Notes: generated by a model not told the origin, from the sequence alone. 64,000 nucleotides of DNA from a virus (IMGVR_UViG_2778261571_000004), one strand, 5' to 3'. Counted from the first letter of the stretch, positions 21,194 to 61,966 are shown. Program-made: numbers and translations.

Positions 21194-21217
21194 TTAGATA
21201 ATTACTTACCTATCGAG
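21194..21217. promoter_or_regulatory. Palindrome, motif family 1, between terL and portal genes
   Basis: ttagataattacttacctatcgag. Confidence 0.4.
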
Positions 21218-22466
21218 AACCACCAAGAATAACACGGTTTTTGACTGGATACCTACGATGTACTGGATAGCCCAATGCGTCTGCACTATGCTCAATGCCA
21301 CCTGTCTTATCCATATCTCGTGTTCCAGGCTTGTAGATGACTTTTTCCAGTGAATCAATCAAATGCTTGCACTTCGGATCGATATACAGCCGGATATCTC
21401 CAGATGCGGTCATCAGCATTCGGTTAACAGCATTAACACGATCCGCAATTGGCGGGTGCTTTTTCGAATAATCGACACGTAAGAATCCCTTCTCTTTGAA
21501 TATGTCGACGTCAGACTCCCCGCGAGCATGTTGGCGATAAGCACCTGCCGGATCTGGAAATACCGTTATCTGTGATTTCCAGCGCCAGAAGCGTCTCTCA
21601 AGCTCATCACAAACCTCTGCCGTGTTAGAGGAAAAGAGCACCAATTCATCAATTGCCCATAGCTCACCATTTGGCTGAGGTTGCAAAATTACTGAAGACA
21701 TCGGGTCAATGTTGAAGTCCTGCCCTACCCATATAGGCAACCGAGGGTTGAACTGAAGCGGTTTTACATGCACGTTACGATCGAACGGGTAGTAAACGCG
21801 CCCGGACATGTTCTCAAAGCTCGCCAGGTACTCCTGAGCGAACGATTTCGGGTCCATATCGTTCTTAGCAGCTTCAATTTCCGCCGTAGGTACAAACGGA
21901 GAATCGGCAGTTACAAACTGCCAGCTCTTCCACTGTCCCTTTCTTTGCAGCTCTACGTTCTGGCCTATAGTCCACAGTTTGTGAAATTCCGAGAAGCCTT
22001 TTGGCGTACCAATGATCAGTGCACCGCCGCGTGTCGATGAAAGAGTAGGTCGTAACACCTTGTACCAGGTGTCAGCCTTCATATCCTGAAATTCATCAAG
22101 CACTACAAAATGCAACGCTACGCCGCGCAGAGTGTCAGGCTTATCAGCACCTTTGAGGGCGATCTCCGAACCGTTCTTCAACACGATTGTCATCGTGGTG
22201 TCGTTCTTTTTCCTAACCCACTTACGAGGCAGAACTTCCTGTAGATCGTCCCACAAAATCTGACGAGCCATCTGGTAAGTAGGAGCGACATACCAGACCC
22301 TTTGCTTTTTTTCCTTTGCCGCCGCACGAATAATAGTGGAGATCGACAACCGGGATTTTCCCCAGCGTCGACCAGCACAAACAACTTTAAATCGATGCGG
22401 AGACTGGAAGACTTTCATCTGTCCAGAATGCAGTTGCACAAGACTGAGCGAGGACGGGATTGCCAT
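21210..22466 (-). CDS. terL: Terminase large subunit
   Basis: Walker A-like CAGRRWGKS, Walker B-like HFVVLDEF, C-terminal nuclease-like region (VGQDFNIDP); 418 aa. Confidence 0.8.
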   Translation of the reverse strand: MAIPSSLSLVQLHSGQMKVFQSPHRFKVVCAGRRWGKSRLSISTIIRAAAKEKKQRVWYVAPTYQMARQILWDDLQEVLPRKWVRKKNDTTMTIVLKNGSEIALKGADKPDTLRGVALHFVVLDEFQDMKADTWYKVLRPTLSSTRGGALIIGTPKGFSEFHKLWTIGQNVELQRKGQWKSWQFVTADSPFVPTAEIEAAKNDMDPKSFAQEYLASFENMSGRVYYPFDRNVHVKPLQFNPRLPIWVGQDFNIDPMSSVILQPQPNGELWAIDELVLFSSNTAEVCDELERRFWRWKSQITVFPDPAGAYRQHARGESDVDIFKEKGFLRVDYSKKHPPIADRVNAVNRMLMTASGDIRLYIDPKCKHLIDSLEKVIYKPGTRDMDKTGGIEHSADALGYPVHRRYPVKNRVILGGSR

Positions 22467-23098
22467 TATTCGTCCTCCCCTTCACTTCCATCATCTGTCG
22501 CATCAAATTCGCTTAGAGCTTCTTCTTCCAACGTCTCAAGCAATTCGTCATCGATGATTTCAGGCTCGTCGTCTTCCTGACGTAATTTCGCCACCTGGGA
22601 AGGCGTAAGCTCACCAAATACCAGGTTCGGAATTTCTTCCTCGTCATTTTCCGCATGATCCATGCCCAATGCTTTGGACGAAACTTCAAAGCATTTTGCA
22701 AGGGTATTACTGGCTCTCTGTAAGCTCTTGAGAGAATCCTCAATCGCCCCTAAAGGCTTACCCTCACGTTTGGCCGTAGTGACTTCGACCATCACCATCT
22801 GCCCCAACGCATACGCCCAGCCGTCATAACGTGTACGACGTTCTTCTATCTTTTCCGCACGGGCTTTAGCGCGAAGCTCTGCGTCAGATTTAAGAGACTC
22901 ACGAACCATCTTCCCAACAGAGTCCGCGCCTTTCTCTAATCCTCGCTTTTTGAAATGTCTGGAGAGTGTTTCACGACGAATGCCGTACTCTTCCTCCAGC
23001 TTTGAGAGTGTATATTCGCCTGACGTCCATTTGGCTTCAGCTTCGGCCCACTCCGCTGGTGTCAGGCGAGTTTTTACCTCGTCTTTTTCGACCGTCAT
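22466..23098 (-). CDS. terS: Terminase small subunit
   Basis: 210 aa, N-terminal HTH-like segment and acidic C-terminus, overlaps terL start. Confidence 0.65.
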   Translation of the reverse strand: MTVEKDEVKTRLTPAEWAEAEAKWTSGEYTLSKLEEEYGIRRETLSRHFKKRGLEKGADSVGKMVRESLKSDAELRAKARAEKIEERRTRYDGWAYALGQMVMVEVTTAKREGKPLGAIEDSLKSLQRASNTLAKCFEVSSKALGMDHAENDEEEIPNLVFGELTPSQVAKLRQEDDEPEIIDDELLETLEEEALSEFDATDDGSEGEDE

Positions 23099-23137
23099 AG
23101 ATCCCTCTAAAACACACAGAGCGCGTCCATGCGCTCT

Positions 23138-23153
23138 AAAACAACTTGTTTAC
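23138..23153. promoter_or_regulatory. Operator-like palindrome, motif family 2 (AAACAAnTTGTTT), upstream of terS
   Basis: aaaacaacttgtttac; same palindrome recurs upstream of at least eight accessory genes. Confidence 0.4.
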
Positions 23154-23207
23154 TGCATCTGCTAACCAACTTGTTTTCTGGGGTGTTTAATTAGGTCTGG
23201 CATGTCT

Positions 23208-23272
23208 TACGAAGCCTGCTTCCGTATATATTTAATAAGTTACTTATTATTTATATATACAGAAGCAGGTCT
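23208..23272. repeat. Long inverted-repeat element, copy 1
   Basis: agcctgcttccgtatata ... tatatacagaagcaggtct arms around an AT-rich loop; near-identical arms recur at 56455-56515. Confidence 0.6.
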
Positions 23273-23293
23273 TTAAATAAGCTCCCAGACCGA

Positions 23294-23560
23294 TTACATC
23301 ACCAGTAACTTCGCTTTGGCTCGACCTAAAGTAGTTAACCCAAGAGTTCGGCGGTGATAGCGATTGTCACTGCGTTGGCGCGTATGCCCTTTCTCCACCA
23401 GCCCCTTTTTTATCAGAGCGCGAATTGAGAACTGGATACTTTGCTTGGTTGTCTTGTACGGCAAAACTTCAAGCAATTCGTCCAGGTCAAGTAGATGACC
23501 TCGCTCATAACCGAGATTGAGCGTTTTGATGATGTCCTTTTGTTTATCGGTTAACGTCAT
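23294..23560 (-). CDS. Small winged-helix-like DNA-binding protein (last gene of six-gene operon)
   Basis: 88 aa, basic, helix-turn-helix-like segment (TTKQSIQFSIRALIKKGLVEK). Confidence 0.35.
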   Translation of the reverse strand: MTLTDKQKDIIKTLNLGYERGHLLDLDELLEVLPYKTTKQSIQFSIRALIKKGLVEKGHTRQRSDNRYHRRTLGLTTLGRAKAKLLVM

Positions 23561-23569
23561 GGCAAATCC

Positions 23570-24469
23570 TTATGCCGGTAAAGCAATTTCTAACGGTTTA
23601 TCCAAAGGTTGTTTGTCGAATGCCAGCAGTGGCAGCGTGTCAGGCAGTCGACGACCAAAGTCAGGGTTTCGATACACACCATACAACGGAGACGTAAAGC
23701 TCAGGTTGTGAATGTCCTTGAGCAGCTTCACAATGCTGGCCTCGTCCACCAGACTGTCGGCAATGTCCTGAATCGTCGTGCCACGATTCCGCCCAGCTTT
23801 TGCCAGGGAACTGTTCTTGTGGTAGTCCGCCACCAGATCACGCAGTGCACGGCGACGACGAGACTCGCTCATAGCGAACAACTCTTTGACGATCGCCTCG
23901 TTATCACCCGGGTCGGAGCGGAAATGGCGCTGGAACACACGCAGTGCACTTTCATAGCTCTTCGGTCGCTCAGGGCGGATGAACTTAAACCCTGCTTTCA
24001 TGGCGAAGGGATTGTATTTGCTCATCGATGACTGGATCTCAATGATTGGCCGGTCGTGCATCCTGCTAACCAGGTTAATCATTCGATAAGAGACGCCTAC
24101 GCCACGGTACTGAGTATCCACAACTGAGCGGCTGATCACCGCAAAGTTGTTATTCACGTACCGGCCCCAGTACTGGTTAGCCACGGTGGTATTGGTAGTT
24201 GGTTTCAACTTAGGAAACATGCGATGGCGAGGTGCCAGCAGAAGTTTCGGGTAAGCCATAACCACGACGCCCACCAGACGGTCATCCAGTTCGCAGCGAT
24301 AGTATGTTGGCGCGAAAGGTTTGCCGTCTGTTTTGTAGTGAAGCGATTTAAGAGCGTGCCAGTCCTCTACAGTTCCCTTTGTGACAGTCATTCGCTCCAG
24401 AAAGTCCAGATGACGCGGAAACTCTTCAGGGCGGTAGCGTTTGATGATGATATCTGCCATCTCGATCAC
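23570..24469 (-). CDS. Putative acetyltransferase (GNAT-like) domain protein with helical C-terminal extension
   Basis: 299 aa; motif QYRGVGVSYRM resembles GNAT acetyl-CoA binding motif A; assignment by pattern only. Confidence 0.3.
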   Translation of the reverse strand: MIEMADIIIKRYRPEEFPRHLDFLERMTVTKGTVEDWHALKSLHYKTDGKPFAPTYYRCELDDRLVGVVVMAYPKLLLAPRHRMFPKLKPTTNTTVANQYWGRYVNNNFAVISRSVVDTQYRGVGVSYRMINLVSRMHDRPIIEIQSSMSKYNPFAMKAGFKFIRPERPKSYESALRVFQRHFRSDPGDNEAIVKELFAMSESRRRRALRDLVADYHKNSSLAKAGRNRGTTIQDIADSLVDEASIVKLLKDIHNLSFTSPLYGVYRNPDFGRRLPDTLPLLAFDKQPLDKPLEIALPA

Positions 24470-24720
24470 CTGCGCTCGATATTGGCATTGATGAAATCCA
24501 GGCGAAGAGACTCCATCGCCCCTACCATGACATACGGGCGCCCGCCGTTATGCCAGCAATCAAGAACACTGCCGTCGTTGTTGATCATCAACAGCGCCAG
24601 GCTCTGGCTTTTTCCTTCTCTGGCGTGCTGAAGTGCTTCTTCCAGCAGGCGGATGACTTCCACGTTGTTGTTATCAGTCTCTTTCGATGGCTTCAGCTCT
24701 ACGATCTTCAAATCAGGCAT
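24466..24720 (-). CDS. Hypothetical protein
   Basis: 84 aa, 4-nt overlaps with both neighbours (operon member). Confidence 0.3.
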   Translation of the reverse strand: MPDLKIVELKPSKETDNNNVEVIRLLEEALQHAREGKSQSLALLMINNDGSVLDCWHNGGRPYVMVGAMESLRLDFINANIERR

Positions 24721-25351
24721 ATTCCACCTTCACGCGTTCTTTGTAGTGCTTGGTGATCTGCATATCCGGGCGCAGCGCGTTCTTCAGGTCTTCGTGAGTC
24801 GTCGCCACCATTACCGTCGCACCAACCTTTCGAGCGGCACGCTGGAGGTTAGATGCCACAACCTGAGCGGTTACACGGTCGAGAACAGCGCCGAACTCGT
24901 CAGCAGCCCACACTTTAGCGCCTGACTCAATCAGTTTGGCAATCTTGAGACGATATTTCTGACCGTCTGACATTTCAGAAGGCTTGCGAACAAACAGATA
25001 TGCATCGTTCAGACCAGCCATAGATAACAACCCAAGCGCATCACTGGTAGTTTTGCCCAGTTGGTCAATGACGTTAACCTCATTATCGAAGGTAAAATCA
25101 TCGATGGAGGCCACAGATAGCCCTTCATCCTTCATCTGGTGTTGCAGCTCGCGCAGCACAACGGATTTGCCGGAACCGGATTGGCCGGTAATGTACACCA
25201 CATCGCCCTGCTTCACTTCCAGCTCCAGATTGTCGTAAAGCGTCCACTCTTTTTCGTCCAGGCCAAGCCCGAACGACTCAGCGATTTCCAACGTGCGCGT
25301 GGTTTTATTTACGCGTGTCTGAAACGATACGTTGATGATGTATTTGCTCAT
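24713..25351 (-). CDS. Orphan ABC-type ATPase (nucleotide-binding domain only)
   Basis: Walker A GQSGSGKS, signature-like MSDGQKYR, Walker B VWAADEFGA, H-loop ATTHED; no transmembrane partner nearby. Confidence 0.6.
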   Translation of the reverse strand: MSKYIINVSFQTRVNKTTRTLEIAESFGLGLDEKEWTLYDNLELEVKQGDVVYITGQSGSGKSVVLRELQHQMKDEGLSVASIDDFTFDNEVNVIDQLGKTTSDALGLLSMAGLNDAYLFVRKPSEMSDGQKYRLKIAKLIESGAKVWAADEFGAVLDRVTAQVVASNLQRAARKVGATVMVATTHEDLKNALRPDMQITKHYKERVKVEYA

Positions 25352-26016
25352 GCAGCCATCTCCCCGGAAGAGATCTTCTCCGCATATGCCACAAATGCGT
25401 CTACCCCGCTTTCTCCCGTCATTTCTTCCATGTGGGCAAGCAAATCACCAACAACAATGGCAGAGCCAGCAGGGAGCGTTTTAAAGCCCAATACGTCGAC
25501 AACACGTACTTCTTCCGCTGCAACTTCACGACTGATCTCGGTGTGTTCATCCTTCTGTCGTTTAGTTTCTTCGCCAAGATCGATAACTAGCGAGTCGGTG
25601 TCCATTTCTTCTGTCATACTGCCAACGAGAACATTCAACTCACGCTCTTCAAAGCCGAAAACCTCGATATCGTCCAGAACAAGCGACTCAAGCTCTTTCT
25701 GTAGCTTAATTGCATCGTAATCAATGCTGGCAAGTCGGTTATCTTCAAGGCGCTTCGCACGAACCTCGTCATCACTGAGATCATCGCGAACAATAACCGG
25801 TACGCGCTCAAGTCCAGCAAAAATTGCAGCCTCACGGCGGCCGTGGCCAGTAATAATTACGTCGTTCTTATCGACCGTAATTGGCTGGTCAAATCCGCGC
25901 TTTTTAATGGCTGCGGCTAGATCTCGGATCTGCTGTTCATCATGCTTTTTGGCATTCATCTCATAGGGAATAAGATCTGCCGGGTCGCGATATACGATTT
26001 CAAACTTTTTGGTCAT
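25348..26016 (-). CDS. ParB/Srx-like nuclease-domain protein 2
   Basis: ParB N-terminal motif ITGHGRREAAIFAGLERVPV; start set at MTKKFEIVY giving TAATG overlap with upstream stop; ORF track 25348-26049. Confidence 0.6.
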   Translation of the reverse strand: MTKKFEIVYRDPADLIPYEMNAKKHDEQQIRDLAAAIKKRGFDQPITVDKNDVIITGHGRREAAIFAGLERVPVIVRDDLSDDEVRAKRLEDNRLASIDYDAIKLQKELESLVLDDIEVFGFEERELNVLVGSMTEEMDTDSLVIDLGEETKRQKDEHTEISREVAAEEVRVVDVLGFKTLPAGSAIVVGDLLAHMEEMTGESGVDAFVAYAEKISSGEMAA

Positions 26017-26714
26017 TACATACGCTCCTTGTAGTAGTCGACCAGCCACACCAGAGCCTCACCAGCGTTCTCCATTTCATTACCGGTGTTAATAGCCTGC
26101 TCTTTGATGATGTTTTTTATGGTTTCTGCAACACGATCTGACGCATCGAAAGTTACTTTGAAGCGCATGGTCTGATGTTCCGCACCCACACGTTCGGTTT
26201 TCTCTCGTTTGTCGGTATCGACAGGCTCATCACTACCACGAGACAACGCCTCCAGTGCTTCAAGGTCGATTGCCGCCTCTTTTGCTAAAACCATCGAGAT
26301 TTCGTCGTCATACGGGGCGATTTCAGACAGTTGATAGTCAAGTTCTGACTGAATTTCTTCAATGAAGCGTTGCAATGCGATTTGGTCGTCTTCACCGTAT
26401 CGCTCGTTGTCCACCAGTGACATCTGTTTAGCTACGACATCGCTAATTTTGCCCACAGAAAGCACCGGAACCGTTGAAATTCCTTGCTCAATAGCAGCAC
26501 GCCAGCGATGTTCGCCGCCGAGGATTTCAAAAAATCCATCTTCAAGTTCACGAGCCAAAATTGGCTTAAAAAAGCCCAATTTTTCGATAGAACCTTTCAG
26601 TTTTTCAAAATTCTGCGCACCAACCGAATTGGTGTTCCAGGTATTCGGGCGAAGGTTGGCAACATCAACCTGCAAAATCGTGATTTTTACATCCATTTTA
26701 TTGCTACAATCCAC
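26016..26714 (-). CDS. ParB/Srx-like nuclease-domain protein 1
   Basis: ParB N-terminal motif ILGGEHRWRAAIEQGISTVPV; acidic C-terminal half. Confidence 0.6.
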   Translation of the reverse strand: MDCSNKMDVKITILQVDVANLRPNTWNTNSVGAQNFEKLKGSIEKLGFFKPILARELEDGFFEILGGEHRWRAAIEQGISTVPVLSVGKISDVVAKQMSLVDNERYGEDDQIALQRFIEEIQSELDYQLSEIAPYDDEISMVLAKEAAIDLEALEALSRGSDEPVDTDKREKTERVGAEHQTMRFKVTFDASDRVAETIKNIIKEQAINTGNEMENAGEALVWLVDYYKERM

Positions 26715-26778
26715 TAAGTAATCACTTACTTATTATAATAGCCAAATAACATACAAAAGGCACTAAGGAAAGAGGTTT

Positions 26779-28338
26779 ATGACTGTTCGGATTGTATCTA
26801 ACGCAGTTAATGCGCTTATTTCTGGCGCAGATGACAAGGTAAAGCAAATGGTGCAACAGATGTTGAGCTACGAAGTCGAGACTGGCGACTGGAAGGGCAC
26901 AAGCACGATGTTCAACTGGAGTAAAAACTCGTTCCCTGCTGGCTTTGCCAAGCCTGTAGCGGCGAACTTGAACAAGGCGGGCATCAAATGTGTTCATATC
27001 CGCAAAGACAAAGCCCCGGCGCTTGGTAAACCAAATCCGGCGGTTAACCCATTCCCATACAATCCTGATTATGCGTATCAGGATCAGACTGTGGAAACAC
27101 TGGTTCGAGAGGGAATGATGATTGCGCAGATCGCTACTGGTGGCGGGAAATCTAATGTTGCCTGCAAAGCGACTGCACGTATCGGTCGAATGACATTATT
27201 TTTAACAACCCGCTCTGTTCTGATGTTTCAGATGGCCGAAAACTTCCAGAGATCCATCGACTACCGCGCCGAAAATGGCGAACCGTGGTTAAAAGACCAA
27301 AAGGTTGGAGTCATTGGCTCTGGTGAGTTCCAGGTATCACGACATATCAACGTCGCTACAGTTCAAACTCTGGCAAGTTTCCTTGAAGAACCACCACGCG
27401 ATGCAACTCCAGATAAGAAGAGCTACCACCTCAAACGTCGGGACTTGGTGAAACGCTTCCTTTCAAGTGTGTCTCTGCTTATTCTGGAAGAGGCGCATGA
27501 GTCTTCAGGTTCTAATTTCTATGACATTGCCAGATTATGTGTGAACGCAGACTATCGTCTGGCACTTACGGCCACGCCGTTCATGAAGGATTCTACAGAA
27601 GCCAACATGCGTCTGATGGCTGTGGCTGGGCGAATTGAAATCAAAGTCACAGAAAAGTACCTGATTGATCGAGGCATTCTGGCAAAACCGTACTTCCTTT
27701 ATCATAAAGTTGCCTACAAGCCAGACGAGGTCAGAATAAAGGCGGAACTTGCCAACAAACACCTCAATTTTAGAGTAGGTATGAGCACAGCCTACCAAAA
27801 GGCTTATCAGTTGGGGATCGTGTATAATTTGGGACGTAATGAGGCCATTGTTCGCGAAGCATTGCTCTATAAGCAACATTCTCTCAATTGTATGACTCTG
27901 GTTCGTCTTAAACGCCACGGGCAAATCCTGATGGAAATGATGAAAGAGTCCGGCCTTAGAGTTGACTTCATTTATGGGGAATCGAACCAGTCGACAAGGC
28001 AAGCAAAGCTGAACAGTTTAGCGTCTGGTGAAATAGATGTTTTAATAGGCTCGACTATTCTGGATGTTGGTGTTGATGTGCCAAGCGTTGGTGCGGTCAT
28101 TCTTGCTGGTGGTGGGAAAGCAGAAGTTGAAATGAGACAGCGTGTCGGTCGTGGCTTACGAGCCAAGAAGAATCAGGCAAACGTGTGTTTTATCACTGAT
28201 TTCATTGACATTAGCAACAAATACCTGTTGTCTCACTCTTATGAGCGAAAACACATCATCGACACCACACCTGGCTTTGCAGAAGGTGTATTGCCTATTG
28301 ATGGAGCATTCGATTTTGGAGTTCTGAAACGAGATTAG
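26779..28338 (+). CDS. SF2 DNA helicase (DEAH-type, UvsW/D10-like)
   Basis: Motif I ATGGGKS, motif II LILEEAHE, motif VI QRVGRGLR; 519 aa. Confidence 0.7.
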   Translation: MTVRIVSNAVNALISGADDKVKQMVQQMLSYEVETGDWKGTSTMFNWSKNSFPAGFAKPVAANLNKAGIKCVHIRKDKAPALGKPNPAVNPFPYNPDYAYQDQTVETLVREGMMIAQIATGGGKSNVACKATARIGRMTLFLTTRSVLMFQMAENFQRSIDYRAENGEPWLKDQKVGVIGSGEFQVSRHINVATVQTLASFLEEPPRDATPDKKSYHLKRRDLVKRFLSSVSLLILEEAHESSGSNFYDIARLCVNADYRLALTATPFMKDSTEANMRLMAVAGRIEIKVTEKYLIDRGILAKPYFLYHKVAYKPDEVRIKAELANKHLNFRVGMSTAYQKAYQLGIVYNLGRNEAIVREALLYKQHSLNCMTLVRLKRHGQILMEMMKESGLRVDFIYGESNQSTRQAKLNSLASGEIDVLIGSTILDVGVDVPSVGAVILAGGGKAEVEMRQRVGRGLRAKKNQANVCFITDFIDISNKYLLSHSYERKHIIDTTPGFAEGVLPIDGAFDFGVLKRD

Positions 28339-28340
28339 TT

Positions 28341-28619
28341 ATGAGCGAAAAGAAAACAACTTATTGCCAAGTGGCATTGTCTGATAAGGCCAATGAAAAA
28401 CTTGGAAAATTTCAAATAAAACTCAAAGAGAAAAAAATCAAGATGTCTAAGGCTGAAGTTATCAATGCCATTCTGGAGACGATGACTATGGCTGAATTTG
28501 ACAAAGTCACATCTGCCGTTGGGGTTTCCGCTAAGACGCGTGAGAAAATCATGCGCATCTATGAAAACTCCAATATGACAAAAAAAGATTTAGAGGAAAT
28601 ACTGAGCAGGTTGCCGTAA
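28341..28619 (+). CDS. Hypothetical small basic protein, translationally coupled to helicase
   Basis: 92 aa, starts 3 nt after helicase stop. Confidence 0.35.
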   Translation: MSEKKTTYCQVALSDKANEKLGKFQIKLKEKKIKMSKAEVINAILETMTMAEFDKVTSAVGVSAKTREKIMRIYENSNMTKKDLEEILSRLP

Positions 28620-28684
28620 CATTTCATATTTACCCCCTATCTACTAATTCTATGATGTGCTCACTTGTTAGAAAGGAGCACATC

Positions 28685-29251
28685 ATGAGTTGGTTAAAAG
28701 AATTATCATTTGTTGACACCACTGGCGCTAAGAAAAATCATTCTTTCTGGAAAGTCAGCGATCCTTCTGATTTTCTTGTTGGCGCTAATGCTGCTTTTGA
28801 ATTGCTTAACTTTTATCAACGTTATCCTGAAATGAAACACAGTCCACTCCTGTACAGAATAACAAACGATATGAATAGGTCTGGTTTATTATCAAGTGAG
28901 TCAGCGAAAGGCTTTTTTAGCAAAATTACGCCACACATATCATTCGATGCTGCAAACGAAATTGATTATCTATCCACGAAACCTCAAGAACAATTATCTG
29001 TACCACCTGAGAAAAAAGAAAGACGAATTGCCAGCATTGAAAATATATCGAAAGAGCTTCGCACAACAACGTTGAGGCTGCTGAACTTTCTTACGCTACT
29101 AAATTGGATAGATGATCAAACATTGATTCCATCAACCGATGCGTTGGATAACAGAGTACTTAGGCTGAACAAAAAATCGCAATTTGGTTTTGTGTTCACC
29201 AAAAAAGGTGAAGATTTAATCAAAAGAAAATATAGATTATTGAATGATTAA
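28685..29251 (+). CDS. Hypothetical protein (AT-rich moron)
   Basis: Start set at MSWLKEL with AGGAG RBS; ORF track 28652-29251; low GC. Confidence 0.3.
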   Translation: MSWLKELSFVDTTGAKKNHSFWKVSDPSDFLVGANAAFELLNFYQRYPEMKHSPLLYRITNDMNRSGLLSSESAKGFFSKITPHISFDAANEIDYLSTKPQEQLSVPPEKKERRIASIENISKELRTTTLRLLNFLTLLNWIDDQTLIPSTDALDNRVLRLNKKSQFGFVFTKKGEDLIKRKYRLLND

Positions 29252-29395
29252 TAGTCTACATGCAGGTGTATGAGAGCACCTGCATGTGACATTCGTCACA
29301 TTTTTTGAAGTGCACACCTCCGGCTGAAAAAATTTCTTGATTGGCTGAACGATATTTGTAGGCTTCATCGCTGAGTTTGGTCGAAGGGATAGCTA

Positions 29396-29971
29396 ATGGC
29401 TCTTTCAAATACACAACTTCACACGATATTGGATAAAGCTTCATATGTATCAAATGGGACACTTAGCGAAAATAACATTCAGATACAACGGGGGAAAGAA
29501 ACGAAAGATAAAATTCACGCTAAAGGTTTCTACTTCGGAAAGAGTTCAGCATTACGAGAATCTTATTCAAAAAACAACCCTTACCACATTTATTTAATTT
29601 CACCAGACAATGAGGATAGACGAGATGATTATTCATTGGTCATTTTCCCTTTCCAGATAAAAGAAATACTTCCTGTGATTGAAAATATAGATGGTATTAC
29701 CCCTGGATATATTCAGTTAAGCTCAAACTTCAATACGTTCAAAATTCACAATCGCTTAAAAAGTGATTCGTATTGTGGCGTAGGCTACTCTATAAAGGTT
29801 GAGAACGAAGACAGTCTATGGGAACTTATTGTGCAGATCAAGAAAAGGCTTGAGTTACCTAGAGGAGATAAGAACAGACTATCGACGCTACCTCAGAATG
29901 GATTACCTAAGACAAAAGAGGAAAATACACCTCAAAAGCTGATTGTAGATCTGCTCAACAAACGCTCATAA
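29396..29971 (+). CDS. Hypothetical protein (AT-rich moron)
   Basis: 191 aa ORF, no recognisable motif. Confidence 0.3.
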   Translation: MALSNTQLHTILDKASYVSNGTLSENNIQIQRGKETKDKIHAKGFYFGKSSALRESYSKNNPYHIYLISPDNEDRRDDYSLVIFPFQIKEILPVIENIDGITPGYIQLSSNFNTFKIHNRLKSDSYCGVGYSIKVENEDSLWELIVQIKKRLELPRGDKNRLSTLPQNGLPKTKEENTPQKLIVDLLNKRS

Positions 29972-29978
29972 ACTCTCA

Positions 29979-30353
29979 TTGTCAAAGACGGTTAAAAAGA
30001 TGAAGTCTAAAAAAATTCAATTTTTTTCTATGGCATTCTTGGCATTCTATATAGGAAATACAGTAGCCAAACCTTTAACGCCCGTTCAGCAAGATTACAT
30101 TAAAAGTATTCTAGAAAAACAATTACTGGCCCCGGATGCAGCTAAATACAAATTCCCAGATCACGTTGAAGGTAGCAATACATATTGTTTCAAACTAAAT
30201 GCGACTAACTCATATGGTGGGTATACAGGTTACAGATGGGTACAAATTCCTTACAATGACGTGTTAACCAAGAACAGCAACACTATTGTAGATCTAAATA
30301 TCCTACCTAAAGAGGTTTTTGAAGAAAGCTGTAAAGAATTAGGGTATAAGTAG
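29979..30353 (+). CDS. Putative secreted small protein
   Basis: N-terminal signal-peptide-like hydrophobic segment (FFSMAFLAFYIGNTVA). Confidence 0.35.
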   Translation: MSKTVKKMKSKKIQFFSMAFLAFYIGNTVAKPLTPVQQDYIKSILEKQLLAPDAAKYKFPDHVEGSNTYCFKLNATNSYGGYTGYRWVQIPYNDVLTKNSNTIVDLNILPKEVFEESCKELGYK

Positions 30354-30465
30354 CTCATCACTTGGAAGCATACCCTCGACAATATCAGAAAGATTTGTCG
30401 AGGGTTCGGGCTTTCCCTATGTTTGAACGATTAAATGTTAACAGCAATTAAATATTTTGTATATG

Positions 30466-31266
30466 TTATTCTTCTGGTGGCACGACAAAATCATCGAGCT
30501 TATTCTTTTCGTCTCGAAGCAACTTGATTTCTTCTTCTGTTATACATTTGTCATAATCTGTTTGTTCAGAATGGCACAGTGTAACCGCGAATGGATAGCC
30601 GGTATAGGACAGTCCCCTAACAGGTTCTAGTTCACCGTTGTCTTTTTTCCTAAATTTGTAAAAGTCAGGAGTGTCATAATTGGTGACGCTAACAAGAGCA
30701 TATTTATCATTTTCTCTTGCATACACTTCACTAACACCTCTCGATTCGCCCAACTCTCTACTCACATATGTCGAATCACTTGCAGCATCAAACACAGCCT
30801 GACCTAATGGAGTTTTTTTTAAATCATCTATTTTCTCTTTTTCCTTCCTGATTTTAGATTCGTTTTCCAGATAAAGTTTCACACCGTTTTCTTTACATGC
30901 TAGATTTTGGCGTTCAAAACGTAATCGTTCTCTTGCCGAGTTGGTACTTTTATCCATTGTAACGAATACAATCGGGTTACGTTCACGAACATCAAAGATG
31001 TGCGCATTGAATGCGGTCGCACCTGTATAGGCGTTCAAGACGTTTTTGCCATTCACCTCTCCACATACCATATATGAATAGCTATTTTCACCTAACTGAA
31101 TAGCTCGCATATTCGTGAACCGACCAGCATCAGGATCTAGCAGTGTAGAGCGAATATCCTTTTCAACTAGATCTATGGCTCGCTCTTCATCAGAATCACA
31201 ACCTGTTAATAGTAAAGCCGCTATTAACAATGCTAATGAGTATTTTTTATTCACCCCATTCTTCAT
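30466..31266 (-). CDS. Putative lipoprotein
   Basis: Signal peptide with lipobox LLTGC near N-terminus; 266 aa. Confidence 0.5.
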   Translation of the reverse strand: MKNGVNKKYSLALLIAALLLTGCDSDEERAIDLVEKDIRSTLLDPDAGRFTNMRAIQLGENSYSYMVCGEVNGKNVLNAYTGATAFNAHIFDVRERNPIVFVTMDKSTNSARERLRFERQNLACKENGVKLYLENESKIRKEKEKIDDLKKTPLGQAVFDAASDSTYVSRELGESRGVSEVYARENDKYALVSVTNYDTPDFYKFRKKDNGELEPVRGLSYTGYPFAVTLCHSEQTDYDKCITEEEIKLLRDEKNKLDDFVVPPEE

Positions 31267-31368
31267 GAAACTTATTCCATAATCAATTTTTGGTGGAATG
31301 TACGGTTAGTCTGTCTACGCATCATAGAGATGTATATAATGACCAAAAAAGACTTAAAAAGGTAGACT

Positions 31369-31890
31369 ATGGTTAAAGACATCACCTACGGCATACCGGC
31401 TGAAGTCTGGCCGCGAGACTACGAACATGCTGAAAACATACTTATGTTCTGGCGGAAGAACAACATTCCTGTAAGAGTCACGCTTGAAGACGGTCAGGTG
31501 TTTTGCATGTACGTTCAGGGGACAATGCCTTCCCGCAATAAGCTAGATTTATGCCCGCTTCCATATGATAAAGAAAATCGTATAAGACTCCCACTTGAGC
31601 GCATTAGCACAATTGAATCAGGTGTAATCGATGGCATTGCTCGCGAGTTCAAAGGTAGGCTAACAATACATCCAGACTATGTTGACAATCAGCCATCACG
31701 CCGTGACTTTTTTGCGATATGTCGCAAGGCTTATCAAAACGACCAATCTATAAGGGTCTACATGACAGACGGTCGTGAAATAGAAGGGGTGTCAAGAGGC
31801 GTTGATGCTTGCCAGGTCACTCTTAAGTTAGAAGACGGCAGAAAAATACTTGTTTTCTTCGATTGGGTTGAACGAATCCTTCCATTTTAA
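31369..31890 (+). CDS. Hypothetical protein with two beta-rich repeats (weak resemblance to Rof/Sm-like fold)
   Basis: Internal repeat VRVTLEDGQVFCMYVQG / QVTLKLEDGRKILVFFDW; pattern only. Confidence 0.25.
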   Translation: MVKDITYGIPAEVWPRDYEHAENILMFWRKNNIPVRVTLEDGQVFCMYVQGTMPSRNKLDLCPLPYDKENRIRLPLERISTIESGVIDGIAREFKGRLTIHPDYVDNQPSRRDFFAICRKAYQNDQSIRVYMTDGREIEGVSRGVDACQVTLKLEDGRKILVFFDWVERILPF

Positions 31891-31902
31891 ATCTATAAGG
31901 GT

Positions 31903-31930
31903 AATAACCGGCTAAGCCCGGTTATTATTT
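31903..31930 (+). terminator. Rho-independent terminator
   Basis: aataaccggctaagcccggttatt hairpin followed by T-rich run. Confidence 0.5.
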
Positions 31931-32185
31931 TACATGCCATTCATTTAAAACTCTTTCAATGTCACTCTGTATAAATATATAAGGTTAAAAGCCCGAATTG
32001 ATTATTTATTTAGGGAACACCTTCGACGATCTCGCTTTTATTTCTAGGACTTTCATCCCTGCAGAAAATTTAAAAAAAACACTTGCAATCTTTTTTCACG
32101 TATTGATAATTGAACTCGTCGAAAGCGAGCTGGCTAACGACAGTAAAAAATAAATTCATTTTAATTTTTCGTAAGGATGTCCATC

Positions 32186-32836
32186 ATGGCTAACATTATC
32201 ATTTCTAAAAAATCCATCATTGAAGCTGCTGCCATTGTATCCGACGAGCTGCGCGAAAAAGCAGATCTGGCAACTCAAACATATAACGAACATTATAAAA
32301 ATGGTACGCACACCAAAGCAGACAAAGCAAATATGCAAGCTGCGACCACTAAACTTGCTTACTTCATCAACAACGTCGTAAACGCAGTAGAAGACGAAAA
32401 ATTATGCTCTGTTTTCTACTATGCGATTAAAGCAAGCAAACAAGCGCCAGAAGTATTTTTCCGTGATGCAATGACTAATAGTTATTCTCTGGAAAAACTG
32501 GTCTATCTGGTCAAATCAATTAAAGCTGGTAAATGCGTTTATTCCATCGCTGATATGTCAGGATCTCGTGTATTCGCTTTAATCGATATGATTAACGACG
32601 AGATCGACACGTTCACCAATGGCGCTGTTTTCGATTTAATGAATGAAGCGAAAAAAGCGTGTGAAATTAAATTGGACGCTGGCTATACTCAAGCCAACCA
32701 GTTGATCAATCTTTGCGAACGTCTTGGACTTGTTGAAAAAGTCAAAGGAGCTGGGAGCGCGAAAGCTGGTACTCAGCAATATCGCTTTATTAAAAATGAT
32801 TTCTATAACTATCTGGCTGATGCTTTCAAAGCGTAA
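32186..32836 (+). CDS. Hypothetical protein
   Basis: ORF track 32177-32836; start adjusted to MANIIIS; AT-rich. Confidence 0.3.
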   Translation: MANIIISKKSIIEAAAIVSDELREKADLATQTYNEHYKNGTHTKADKANMQAATTKLAYFINNVVNAVEDEKLCSVFYYAIKASKQAPEVFFRDAMTNSYSLEKLVYLVKSIKAGKCVYSIADMSGSRVFALIDMINDEIDTFTNGAVFDLMNEAKKACEIKLDAGYTQANQLINLCERLGLVEKVKGAGSAKAGTQQYRFIKNDFYNYLADAFKA

Positions 32837-32849
32837 TTAATGGAATCTT

Positions 32850-32870
32850 GCGCCCACTATGGGCGCTTTT
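32850..32870 (+). terminator. Rho-independent terminator (identical copy at 33121)
   Basis: gcgcccactatgggcgc hairpin plus T run. Confidence 0.55.
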
Positions 32871-32883
32871 AAGGAGCTTAATC

Positions 32884-33114
32884 ATGTTTATTCTTATCGC
32901 TGGCGTTAACGTGCGCAATGAATATTTTGTTAATCGCATCGCTGGGATCGCTGGTTACGCTGGGCGCGCAGTCGAGTTCATAAATGAAACAACGCGAAAA
33001 ATTGACTTATTGAACGACCAGGAGCGAAAAAAAGCAGACGTGAATGACGCTGATATATTTTTAATGTTAAAAGCGTTTGTAGAAATGGGATTTAAAATCA
33101 GTTTACACAAATAA
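32884..33114 (+). CDS. Hypothetical small protein flanked by identical terminators
   Basis: Start at MFILIAG with AAGGAG RBS; ORF track 32848-33114. Confidence 0.35.
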   Translation: MFILIAGVNVRNEYFVNRIAGIAGYAGRAVEFINETTRKIDLLNDQERKKADVNDADIFLMLKAFVEMGFKISLHK

Positions 33115-33120
33115 AATCGA

Positions 33121-33143
33121 GCGCCCACTATGGGCGCTTTTTT
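33121..33143 (+). terminator. Rho-independent terminator (second identical copy)
   Basis: gcgcccactatgggcgc hairpin plus TTTTTT. Confidence 0.55.
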
Positions 33144-33167
33144 CGTTTCCAATACTCCCACCATAAC

Positions 33168-33192
33168 GCGCCAATGATGGCGCTTTTTTATT
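33168..33192 (+). terminator. Rho-independent terminator-like hairpin
   Basis: gcgccaatgatggcgc hairpin plus T run. Confidence 0.45.
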
Positions 33193-33604
33193 GTCTTTGA
33201 CTCACTCCAACAACATAAAAATAAGCGCCAAAATAACGCCATAGACGCGCTTTTATATCCTTGTCAGTACATACCCATTACTTAACACATTAACGCGCTT
33301 AAAACGCGTTATATTGCGCTATAGAGTATGGTTAATCATTGGCTTTTAGTCTTGCTATGTGATCCGCGTTTATTTGTCGGCGCGGATCGGCTCTTTGTGT
33401 TGTTTTGTATCCGCTCGCGTATTATGTGCGCGTGATTTTTCACATAATCACACCACTTAATCACATATGTGATTACGCTACGAAAGAAATCTGGATGTCT
33501 CAGGCGACGAAAGTCATCATAATTTTCCCCGCTCACCTGTCCGACAACCGCTGGTTGGATTCCACCAGCTTCCCGATGTTTTTTCTACATAAAGGCGAAT
33601 GCAG

Positions 33605-33694
33605 CCGTTTCCCGAAAAAATCCTGGCCGTTCCCCCGTCGGCTCATGAATACGTTCCTCGCCGCTTCTGAAAATTTCCCTGCGGCAGCTGGTGG
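33605..33694. repeat. Short cluster of about 22-bp direct repeats related to the array at 37572-37712, with adjacent Chi octamer
   Basis: CCGTTTCCCGAAAAAATCCTGG then CCGTTCCCCCGTCGG...; GCTGGTGG at 33687-33694. Confidence 0.45.
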
Positions 33695-33730
33695 CTATAG
33701 AGAAAGGGCCGTTTCTGGCCCTCTTCTCAG

Positions 33731-34213
33731 TTACACGCCATCAAGGATGTGGATGCGGTTGCTTGCGTATACATTCAGCATAAAGTTAGCGCAAAACAGT
33801 TTCCATGTATCAACGCCAGCGGTATACGTAATGTTTTTGCATTTAATCGCATTGTTGGCGATCCGCATCCCCTGCGATACTGCTTCATCGTCGGAAAATT
33901 TGAACGACGATTGAGTTTTAATCCAGACAGAAATCTGCGTAGCGAACTCAATCAGCTTGGACTGGCAGAATCGCCCGGAGCGCACCGGAAAGACGAACGT
34001 TCCGAATCCAGAATTTACCACATACGCTTTCTCAAATACCCGCGAGTAACGACGATTGCAAATGATGTCGCGTGCAATAATGCATTTTTCTTGTGCTGAC
34101 AGTTCTACCGTCTCATTGTCGCGCCATGCACCAAGTACTCGTTTTTCAATGTCAGAGAACGTTACAGCGATATTGCCATGTGCGGGTGCGTTTACAGTAG
34201 CGATAAAATTCAT
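33731..34213 (-). CDS. Hypothetical protein (operator-tagged moron)
   Basis: 160 aa; motif family 2 about 25 nt upstream of start. Confidence 0.35.
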   Translation of the reverse strand: MNFIATVNAPAHGNIAVTFSDIEKRVLGAWRDNETVELSAQEKCIIARDIICNRRYSRVFEKAYVVNSGFGTFVFPVRSGRFCQSKLIEFATQISVWIKTQSSFKFSDDEAVSQGMRIANNAIKCKNITYTAGVDTWKLFCANFMLNVYASNRIHILDGV

Positions 34214-60862: not shown

Positions 60863-61966
60863 TCACACCGCCACTGGAACCTTGATCCACGGTAGAGGGT
60901 CATAGCCAAGAATTAAAACCTCGTCCCATTTGAAATCATCCAACTCTGACCATTCATGAGGGAAAATAACGACCGGATCTGAATGCTCTGGAGCCTGTCG
61001 TTTCATTAGCTCACACACACCTTCCATGTGGTTGTTGTACAAATGCACGTCAAAGCCAAAATGCACAAATGCACCGGCCATGTGACCCGTAATCTTCGCG
61101 AGAAAATGAGTGAGAATGCCATAGCCAGCAATATTGAATGGCATACCAACAAAAGTGTCTACGCTACGCTGTACGAGGCAGGAGTTGAGGATGCGTTTGG
61201 GGATTCCAAGTTCATCCAGTTCAGCTTCAGTAACACTGCCGTCCATATCCAGATCGTATAGCATCTTGGTGTAGATAGACTCGTAACCGAGGCGACTGTG
61301 TTGAAGACCAATGTCAGTTGCCATCGTTAAACGGGTTTCAAAATCCAGCTCACGACTCCACAAAGAGAAGACAAAGTGGCAAGGTGGCAGTTTCATATCC
61401 TCAAGCTCGCCTACGTTCCATGCGTTAAGCATGATGCGACGATCGGTAGGGTTCGTGCGCAGTGTATCGACAATACGCTGTAGCTGATCGATTTCACGGG
61501 ACAGCACTACGCGATCTTCACTGATACCCAGGTATCCCTCGACTTTGTACCCGCGTTCACGGAAAGTAGCGATCTTGCTCAGATATTCACTATGGCTCAC
61601 GATGCGGGTATCTTCCCATCGACGCCACTGCTTACCGTAAACCGGCCCCAAATCGCCATTCTCATCGGCCCATGCATCCCAAATCTTAACGCCGTTATCC
61701 TTGAGAAATTGGATGTTGCCCGTGCCTTTCAGATACCACTCAAGTTCGACAAGTAGTGGCTTAAGATTTACCGCCTTTCCAGAAATAAGCGGCACAGTCC
61801 CACCAGTAAGCATGTAGTAAGAGGGAACGTAGCAGGTGCTTAAAGTACCAGTGCCTGTGCGATCATCAGCCTGCACGCCGCTTTTAAGCACCGTCTCAAT
61901 AACTTTTGCATACGATGCGTTTGTTACCTGACCGTTCGTATGCTCTCGATTCAAAAGGAGTGACAC
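60863..61966 (-). CDS. thyA: Thymidylate synthase (ThyA family) with about 50-aa internal insert and short N-terminal extension
   Basis: DRTGTGT, IWDAWADENGDLGPVYGKQWR, catalytic PPCH, RSVDTFVGMPFNIAGY; insert between PPCH and the PFNIA region. Confidence 0.8.
   Translation of the reverse strand: MSLLLNREHTNGQVTNASYAKVIETVLKSGVQADDRTGTGTLSTCYVPSYYMLTGGTVPLISGKAVNLKPLLVELEWYLKGTGNIQFLKDNGVKIWDAWADENGDLGPVYGKQWRRWEDTRIVSHSEYLSKIATFRERGYKVEGYLGISEDRVVLSREIDQLQRIVDTLRTNPTDRRIMLNAWNVGELEDMKLPPCHFVFSLWSRELDFETRLTMATDIGLQHSRLGYESIYTKMLYDLDMDGSVTEAELDELGIPKRILNSCLVQRSVDTFVGMPFNIAGYGILTHFLAKITGHMAGAFVHFGFDVHLYNNHMEGVCELMKRQAPEHSDPVVIFPHEWSELDDFKWDEVLILGYDPLPWIKVPVAV

Follow-up and report, generated by a model that had tools for sequence, protein, structure and literature searches.

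A block of six co-oriented genes lies between the terminase genes and a helicase gene in the viral DNA IMGVR_UViG_2778261571_000004, of which a stretch of 64,000 nucleotides (the window) was analysed. The block encodes two proteins with a ParB/Srx fold (ParB1 and ParB2), a compact ATP-binding cassette (ABC) ATPase, an 84-aa accessory protein, a protein resembling Gcn5-related N-acetyltransferases (GNAT-like), and a small putative winged-helix DNA-binding protein. Together the genes probably specify a single conserved enzyme machine, so far uncharacterised, in which an ATP-driven acyl-transferase has two ParB-type partners; it lies ahead of the packaging genes throughout a clade of ~110-kb phages and phage-plasmids and most likely acts on nucleic acid. 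The database labels 'partition protein' and 'ABC transporter' under which its genes are filed are probably both wrong. It is further proposed, tentatively and with rather less than even confidence, that this machine is a nucleoside triphosphate (NTP)-dependent complex of the lytic cycle which acts on phage DNA before packaging.

The central evidence comes from the GNAT-like protein, which has an N-terminal GNAT fold (residues ~1-170) followed by a C-terminal domain of ~130 aa that is particular to the family. An exhaustive search with the profile of this family returned 982 proteins at E <= 0.001. Besides the standalone proteins of ~290-320 aa found in the phage clade described below, these include many relatives of 440-560 aa in which the match falls at residues ~200-480, and an ABC_tran domain lies directly N-terminal of the GNAT-like region in 10 of the 10 long relatives scanned. 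Four fused proteins were compared with the profiles of both window families: the ABC profile matches their ABC domains at E 3e-70 to 3e-80, and the GNAT-like profile gives E 6e-26 to 2e-35. The ABC match is one of specific orthology and not of generic ABC similarity. The ABC and GNAT-like proteins are, by profile comparison, the detached N- and C-terminal halves of an ABC-GNAT fusion protein, and the ATPase that had been described from the sequence alone as an orphan turns out, by profile search and domain scan, to be the N-terminal half of such a fusion. Judged in this way, the closest relatives of the block by descent are ABC-GNAT fusions of the MK0520 type, themselves uncharacterised. Both domains are specifically related and follow each other in the same order, ABC and then GNAT-like; the block differs in that the domains occupy two genes with an unrelated 84-aa gene between them and two ParB/Srx genes ahead, whereas the fusions have no nearby ParB and lie in replication modules.

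The ABC protein matches Pfam ABC_tran at E 6e-13 and consists of a compact nucleotide-binding domain. Its Walker A, signature (SDGQ), Walker B/glutamate and H-loop residues are invariant in 22 orthologues, and it is the best conserved protein of the module, with 52-62% identity in distant relatives. Family scans of the neighbouring open reading frames (ORFs) gave no match to a membrane-domain family, no transmembrane prediction being run. Lacking a permease, and with orthologues that are joined to a GNAT-like domain or to PolB, the protein does not, as far as its sequence tells, belong to an ABC transporter. The GNAT-like protein in turn carries a CoA-pyrophosphate loop, R122-G-V-G125-V-S, at the beta4-alpha3 junction (motif A, Q/R-x-x-G-x-G/A), of which R122 and G125 are invariant in 34 sequences. 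Phage Mu Mom (PDB 8bv8) is among its structural matches; those from a viral structure library are weak and generic, the best at E 1e-4.

The fused proteins come from archaeal virus-like contigs, and the source names of their clusters are MAGs (metagenome-assembled genomes) of Nitrososphaerota, Thermoproteota and Bathyarchaeia. Among the ten that were scanned, two are PolB-ABC-GNAT-like fusions with a family B DNA polymerase (PolB) at the N-terminus, one has an intein in its ABC domain, and one ends in a TFIIB repeat. The intein carries a LAGLIDADG endonuclease; the intein and TFIIB proteins are listed as P0166 and P0155. One fused gene lies in a virus-like replication module, among genes for RadA, an RFC-like AAA protein, RNR, an Mre11-like phosphoesterase and PolB, and another has genes for FEN, prim-pol, RadA, RNA ligase and an SbcC-like ATPase as neighbours. 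In another split version, which follows primase and DnaB, a gene for an FkbM-type methyl-transferase separates ABC from GNAT-like; a further standalone GNAT-like relative has glycosyl- and methyl-transferases around it and a C5 DNA methylase nearby. The recurrence in replication modules and the polymerase fusion argue for an enzyme that works on DNA or at the replisome.

ParB1 and ParB2 are paralogous and have the same layout. In ParB1, a ParB/Srx NTP-binding domain (~1-110) is followed by helices (111-158), a disordered acidic linker, and a C-terminal strand with two helices (182-231); ParB2 likewise has a ParB/Srx N-domain, an acidic linker and a small C-terminal domain. The AlphaFold 2 (AF2) monomer model of ParB1 has two helices at 111-158, then disorder, then a C-terminal extended segment and two helices. 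Alignments of 24 orthologues of each protein place an acidic linker of low conservation between a ParB/Srx domain of ~105 residues and a conserved C-terminal domain of ~50. The motifs GG-x-HR and D102-N103 are invariant in ParB1, as are G-H-G-R and N93 in ParB2, in which D92 is nearly so. The phosphate loop is kept, and the arginine patch reads GGEHRW in one protein and GHGRRE in the other, as against the canonical GERRxR.

Database matches of the two proteins are concentrated in the N-terminal domain. Both match only ParB_N in Pfam (ParB2 at E 1.5e-8), with no Pfam match to a helix-turn-helix (HTH) or ParB-C domain, and their sequence matches in the PDB are limited to the N-terminal domains of Spo0J, ParB and Noc, although a phmmer alignment to Spo0J extends weakly to residue 160. 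ParB2 belongs to phrog_930 (E 1e-112), and a single-sequence homologue search with ParB1 returned near-identical Klebsiella proteins only. In addition, both proteins match families of ParB-methyltransferase fusions, namely phrog_498 (E 4e-17 and 5e-32) and PADLOC MTase_II (2e-8 and 3e-17). Ribbon-helix-helix C-terminal domains were suspected and are not claimed: PDB profile searches with both domains gave no significant match, hhalign relates the two C-terminal domains to each other only weakly (probability 20%), and the AF2 segment is compatible with this fold and no proof of it.

The two proteins share with the canonical ParB CTPase clamps of ParABS and KorB-type systems the N-terminal ParB/Srx fold, the glycine-arginine phosphate loop and a D/E-N motif. 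However, the block has no ParA next to it, its own ATPase being ABC-type, and its ParB proteins lack a detectable HTH, carry an altered arginine patch, and also occur in phages not known as plasmids. SSU5, a relative discussed below, has a ParA-like gene ~30 kb away with its own small downstream partner (SSU5_033/034). Since ParA and a clear HTH are missing and the arginine patch is altered, the block is taken not to be a ParABS system.

In build, the pair resembles the ParB partners of phage thymine dioxygenases (T-dioxygenases). These phage ParB-like proteins have nucleotide-binding and C-terminal domains without a DNA-binding domain, and are needed in vivo for T-dioxygenase activity on DNA (bioRxiv 10.1101/2025.08.14.668559). 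Similarly, the ParB-like ATPase DpdB is described, in the summary given in PMC12839542, as driving preQ0 insertion by DpdA. The systems of 5mYOX (the clade-E thymine dioxygenase) with its ParB and of DpdA with DpdB thus have in common with the block a phage ParB/Srx protein, with no recognisable HTH, encoded beside an enzyme; in those systems the enzyme needs it for its action on DNA. They differ in that the partner here is an ABC-GNAT pair as opposed to a TET/JBP dioxygenase or a tRNA-guanine transglycosylase (TGT), and in having one ParB where the block has two paralogues. No member of the TET/JBP dioxygenase or TGT families was found in the six genes and their two flanking neighbours, and none is annotated in the SSU5 genome.

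The block is 99.9% identical to that of Escherichia phage CMS-2020a, 98% to that of phage Cyrano and 86% to that of Salmonella phage SSU5, and on account of these identities the window is assigned by sequence to the SSU5-like phage-plasmids. This group also includes pHCM2-like and pMT1-like elements (PMC7969092). Loci ~98% identical to the window occur in Yersinia pestis and Kluyvera, and the genes are also found in Klebsiella and Salmonella elements. The block is therefore catalogued in a known family, the SSU5/pHCM2/pMT1 phage-plasmids, an outcome the sequence-only reading had allowed for, but the names there are generic and no function is assigned. The six genes are called 'ParB-like partition protein' (twice), 'ABC transporter', 'hypothetical', a GNAT-like label, and 'hypothetical' or 'DNA binding domain'; the label of the GNAT-like protein is either 'ABC transporter ATP-binding subunit' or 'MK0520 protein, ABC-type ATPase fused to a predicted acetyltransferase domain'. 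Scans of the block against PADLOC and NCBIfam gave generic matches only, and full-text searches of the literature found no functional description of the block, in agreement with the earlier judgement that the combination matches no named system.

A scan of IMG/VR yielded only close relatives (80-100% identity), and diversity came from a species-level genome scan. The synteny set comprises 33 loci, 3 from metagenomes and genomes and 30 from contigs representing one genome per species, plus Pseudomonas phage nickie. In all 30 loci whose flanks are long enough, and in nickie, the order is divergent helicase, ParB1, ParB2, ABC, GNAT-like, (winged helix-turn-helix, wHTH), terS, TerL and portal. This order is kept at 36-45% GNAT-like identity, despite variable ORFs inserted between the genes. 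GNAT-like homologues with 36-50% identity are found in contigs and phages of alpha-, beta- and gammaproteobacteria, many of the contigs being 96-120 kb, and the block also occurs in Nickievirus and in Rhizobium, Stenotrophomonas and Xanthomonas phages. The ATPase and ParB-like genes, whose separation in related elements would have counted against a common unit, are conserved together in every homologous element examined, and the ABC and GNAT-like genes are separate in every SSU5-clade locus of the set.

The conserved core consists of ParB1, ParB2, ABC and GNAT-like, with the small wHTH protein in most relatives; phmmer detects a counterpart of the latter after GNAT-like in 25 of the 33 loci. 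The 84-aa gene, which had been counted as one of six members of a unit, is variable and lies outside this core: among the 33 loci only near-identical enterobacterial ones have it, and phage Cyrano does not. Translational coupling is tight in the enterobacterial branch but does not extend to other lineages, in which gene order alone is invariant. Thus, the gap between ParB1 and ParB2 ranges from -4 to 627 nt and that between ParB2 and ABC from -11 to 962 nt. In 25 diverse loci, the interval between the end of ABC and the point where the GNAT-like match begins spans -4 to 1146 nt; the window has 252 nt.

The ORFs found in gaps among the core genes include N4 gp49-like, RyR-domain and crAss001_48-like proteins. 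The slot between ABC and GNAT-like holds, depending on the lineage, anything from nothing to ~1.1 kb of unrelated small ORFs, and is a hotspot for such ORFs between the halves of an elsewhere-fused protein. It is empty in Xenorhabdus elements and in Cyrano, contains an N4 gp49-like and a RyR-domain protein in Ectothiorhodospira, and contains other ORFs in marine and Pseudomonas phages.

The 31 phage-database records with a GNAT-like gene are exactly the 31 whose TerL is >53% identical to that of the window. TerL relatives at <=45% identity (36-45%; Vibrio, Pelagibacter and Ralstonia phages of 30-60 kb) lack it. Because its carriers coincide with this group of terminases, the module is considered, from these comparisons, to be a core trait of one clade of ~105-122-kb siphoviruses and not a general companion of this terminase type.

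Within the window, all six ORFs lie on the minus strand where they had been placed (23294-26714), as one closely packed block. Their products match PHROG families end to end (E 2e-45 to 2e-165), and the ORFs are therefore real genes and not chance reading frames. Pfam and PHROG scans bear out the earlier domain calls. The small protein belongs to phrog_900 (E 2e-45), with weak matches to LexA_DNA_bind, Sta1 and Lrs14, and the 84-aa ORF to phrog_796 (E 5e-47). The junctions are for the most part overlaps, as had been described. ParB1 and ParB2 overlap by 1 nt at TAATG (GTATGTAATGACC, read from the sequence), ParB2 and ABC by 4 nt at ATGA (GCATGAGC), and ABC and the 84-aa ORF by 8 nt (ATGCCTGA). 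GNAT-like follows the 84-aa ORF either through a GTGA overlap or from an ATG 5 nt past the stop with an AGGTGA Shine-Dalgarno sequence (AGGTGATCGAGATG). Only the gap between GNAT-like and the small protein (TAAGGATTTGCCATG) needs correction, from 10 nt to 9 nt. Both neighbours of the block, terS and the helicase, are as first read; helicase and ParB1 diverge across 64 nt, a structured spacer of 195 nt separates the small protein from terS, and a portal gene comes next after TerL.

Table 1. Coordinates of the gene block, its neighbours and related features (positions refer to the window unless a contig is named)
Feature	Location	Strand	Description
ParB1	26016-26714	minus	232 aa; GTG start at 26714, alternative ATG at 26696
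ParB2	25348-26016	minus	222 aa from ATG; GTG-extended ORF to 26049
ABC ATPase	24713-25351	minus	212 aa, soluble
84-aa accessory ORF (phrog_796)	24466-24720	minus	variable slot between ABC and GNAT-like
GNAT-like	23570-24460	minus	296 aa from ATG; GTG at 24469
Small putative winged-helix DNA-binding protein	23294-23560	minus	88 aa
terS-like DNA-binding protein	22466-23098	minus	phrog_867, E 2e-100; downstream neighbour of module
TerL	21210-22466	minus	Terminase_6N and Terminase_6C; downstream neighbour of module
Superfamily 2 (SF2, UvsW-like) helicase	26779-28338	plus	Pfam ResIII, DEAD, Helicase_C; divergent upstream neighbour
Intergenic region helicase/ParB1	26715-26778		palindrome TAAGTAA-GTGA-TTACTTA 26715-26732; 11-mer ATAATAAGTAA 26726-26736
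Structured spacer small protein/terS	23099-23293		55-bp near-perfect palindrome 23215-23269; two AAACAAGTTG repeats 23138-23177; GC hairpin
ABC/GNAT-like slot elsewhere	L003 6961-7999		
ABC/GNAT-like slot elsewhere	L004 7694-8008		
ABC/GNAT-like slot elsewhere	L122 5646-5981		
PolB-ABC-GNAT-like fusion	L125 8001-11783 (P0189)		1260 aa, family B DNA polymerase N-terminal; indexed in 35 contig blocks

From the computed genes, folds, motifs, split fusion, synteny and replication context, we infer a working scheme in which the DNA substrate, the group transferred, the role of the ParB proteins and the timing are all conditional. The ABC and GNAT-like proteins would form the catalytic core, as the split counterpart of one ABC-GNAT polypeptide. 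ATP-driven dimerisation of the ABC protein would engage a nucleic-acid substrate, as in non-transporter ABC proteins, and the GNAT domain would then move an acyl group from an acyl-CoA-type donor. The ParB/Srx proteins would bind nucleotide and load or activate the core on DNA by means of their C-terminal domains, perhaps at the flanking palindromes, a role modelled on the ParB-like partners of other DNA-modifying enzymes. The target would be the phage's own DNA, or something bound to it, around replication and packaging. A published table of genes expressed during Cyrano lysogeny lists a ParA/MinD-like gene and not the orthologues of the block (PMC9928086). A late lytic role would fit both this absence and the position of the block just before terS and TerL.

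Two known enzymes help to place this scheme. TmcA/NAT10, a GNAT coupled to an ATPase, uses ATP hydrolysis in acetylating cytidine in RNA, and phage Mu Mom is a GNAT-fold DNA adenine methylcarbamoyl-transferase. The likeness to TmcA/NAT10 would lie in an NTPase module whose ATP hydrolysis is coupled to the acyl transfer that an attached GNAT carries out on a nucleic-acid base; however, the NTPase is there a RecD-like helicase and here an ABC protein, and the sequence relation is limited to the GNAT fold. Mom differs in giving no family-level sequence match, its similarity being at the level of generic GNATs, and in acting without an ABC or ParB partner. By analogy of working logic, the block may be grouped with ParB-assisted DNA modifiers and with NTPase-coupled GNATs, as a member of neither.

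The same scheme can be stated in a narrower form, in which an ABC-driven GNAT loaded by a ParB/Srx pair acylates the bases of replicated phage DNA before packaging. This system, so far unrecognised, would be clade-wide (siphoviruses and phage-plasmids of ~105-122 kb, including relatives of Y. pestis pMT1 and S. Typhi pHCM2), with an ancient fused counterpart on an archaeal-virus DNA polymerase. Taken as a whole, this narrower form is possible but on the unlikely side.

Several points weigh against an action on phage DNA. Most GNATs act on substrates other than nucleic acids, and the similarity to Mom is no better than that to dozens of protein and small-molecule GNATs. The glycosyl- and FkbM-transferase neighbours of the distant GNAT-like relatives could equally mean a sugar or small-molecule pathway. 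The link to the ParB proteins rests only on synteny in one phage clade, in which gene order is conserved overall; no ParB gene was found within 8 kb of the fused ABC-GNAT genes, and none was found beside the distant ABC and GNAT-like genes. The argument from lysogeny is mere absence from a thresholded table, and the literature searched contains no chemical or phenotypic sign of modified DNA in SSU5-like phages. Finally, a hypermodification cassette was sought among the nucleotide-metabolism genes of the window, where ThyA by DHFR, the P-loop kinase-like protein and Dam look conventional and no known cassette of this kind was seen.

A first alternative is an acetylation of proteins or small molecules in host takeover or counter-defence, with the ParB/Srx proteins as nucleotide-dependent regulators or localisers. 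The target would then be either a metabolite or a protein of host or phage, such as a nuclease, a nucleoid protein or part of the replisome. This explanation fits the GNAT neighbours and the transferase-rich contexts of the distant relatives. However, the module is a strictly conserved core of its clade and not a variable accessory, PADLOC gives generic methyltransferase and ATPase matches and no defence system, and the PolB fusion with its replication context points to DNA, though a replisome protein is conceivable. We therefore regard such a role as unlikely, but worth keeping in view.

The surroundings of the block bear on an alternative in which it is an accessory for packaging or DNA organisation. 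The ParB proteins would bind palindromes on the terS side, the ABC protein would ready the concatemer end as an SMC/Rad50-like clamp, and the GNAT would be regulatory or non-catalytic. The module invariably adjoins terS, TerL and portal in the same orientation, and the palindrome upstream and long inverted repeat downstream of the block, both noted in the first reading of the sequence, do exist. The 55-bp palindrome, which lies with repeats before terS, is conserved in SSU5, in Y. pestis pMT1 and in contig L093, and is the place, near 23233, where the linear records of SSU5 and Cyrano have been opened. A GC hairpin with a T-run (23117-23138) lies ~20 nt before the terS ATG. For the Nickievirus Nican01, the record of which starts at TerL, direct terminal repeats of some length are reported (PMC11256456).

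Moreover, one 11-mer, ATAATAAGTAA, brackets the block, with exact minus-strand copies in both intergenic regions, the upstream one (26726-26736) belonging to TAAGTAA-GTGA-TTACTTA and the downstream one (23240-23250) forming the centre of the 55-bp palindrome. At <=1 mismatch it has 3 matches in the window against 1.07 expected, a count that is not significant (8 of 100 shuffles reach 3), and its notable point is the presence of two exact copies at both flanks, which may be a shared operator or loading site. No sigma-70 consensus was found in 26715-26778, and this region is a candidate operator or loading site. The 55-bp palindrome and its spacer may likewise be a packaging or terminus site, or a regulatory element of the late operon. 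Nevertheless, TerL homologues at 36-45% identity do without a GNAT-like gene, so this terminase type dispenses with the module; the fused ABC-GNAT proteins lie in replication and not in packaging modules; and the conserved catalytic-type GNAT residues would argue for an enzyme. A packaging role for the block is, all in all, quite unlikely.

An action on RNA is suggested by TmcA/NAT10, the one well-known enzyme that combines an NTPase with a GNAT. An ATPase-coupled GNAT could similarly modify a base of phage or host tRNA, or of another RNA, during infection, and the phages do carry tRNA genes (tRNA-Asn in SSU5; tRNA-Met and tRNA-Asn beside the nickie helicase). The ATPase is nevertheless ABC-type and not a RecD-like helicase, no tRNA-binding domain was detected, and the polymerase fusion and ParB/Srx partners fit DNA better, so that modification of RNA seems very unlikely.

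An anti-phage defence or superinfection-exclusion system comes to mind because ParB/Srx proteins, ABC ATPases and GNATs occur in defence systems, and because the ABC protein has weak PADLOC matches to mad3 and mad8, as well as to PtuA. It is highly improbable, given that PADLOC returns no system-level match, that the block is absent from the lysogeny-expressed genes, and that defence islands vary, whereas this block is a vertically inherited core beside head genes across proteobacterial classes. The weakest candidate, a non-canonical plasmid partition module for the prophage-plasmid state, is suggested by two ParB-family proteins and an ATPase in one phage-plasmid operon and by the public labels, but is barely credible and already largely refuted, as the ATPase is ABC-type and paired with a GNAT-like protein and not ParA-type, SSU5 has a separate ParA-like gene with a small partner, the ParA/MinD-like gene and not the module is on the Cyrano lysogeny list, and isolated phages, nickie and those of Rhizobium, Stenotrophomonas and Xanthomonas among them, conserve the module just as well. 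Among the four functions that the sequence-only reading had considered, DNA modification is thus the best supported, and partition and anti-phage defence are disfavoured.

Some further observations concern the rest of the window and individual loci. Between 54944 and 63006, the window encodes ThyA with DHFR, a P-loop kinase-like protein, a MazG-like pyrophosphohydrolase, a PNKP-phosphatase-like protein and a Dam methyl-transferase. The ThyA homologue (60863-61966) is unusually long at 367 aa, and its Pfam match falls in two stretches, which suggests an insertion. Past the helicase (28001-34000), G+C is 0.38-0.42, versus ~0.47-0.50 in the structural and module region; the SSU5 counterpart of this part holds lipoprotein, repressor and hypothetical genes, and it is likely a more recently acquired accessory region. 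In the Halomonas sulfidaeris chromosome (L119) and Xanthomonas phage JGB6 (L123), the genes for helicase, GNAT-like, terS, TerL, portal and capsid are each in several frames, from decay of a chromosomal copy (Halomonas) or from indel-rich assemblies. MAGs named Bacillota bacterium and Candidatus Fimivivens include contigs with 98% and 90% identity to the SSU5-like elements of enterobacteria (the group of L092, L093 and L101), and a more distant contig of that group is placed in Candidatus Saccharibacteria; these host labels are probably binning artefacts.

The genes of the block are common and already catalogued, and they are spread in clinical phage-plasmids under the two database labels discussed above. 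What appears undescribed is that they belong together, as a split ABC-GNAT enzyme partnered by ParB/Srx proteins, and that they have a link to DNA. The idea is testable with the cultivable phages SSU5, Cyrano and nickie and by co-expression in E. coli. If the proposed function is true, a role could be assigned to a family of fused proteins from archaea and viruses, of which some are joined to DNA polymerase, and the finding would extend an emerging rule by which ParB/Srx proteins are nucleotide-dependent partners of DNA-modifying enzymes. If the ABC-GNAT pair does act on DNA, phage DNA modification would gain acylation as a new kind of chemistry and an ABC ATPase as a new motor.

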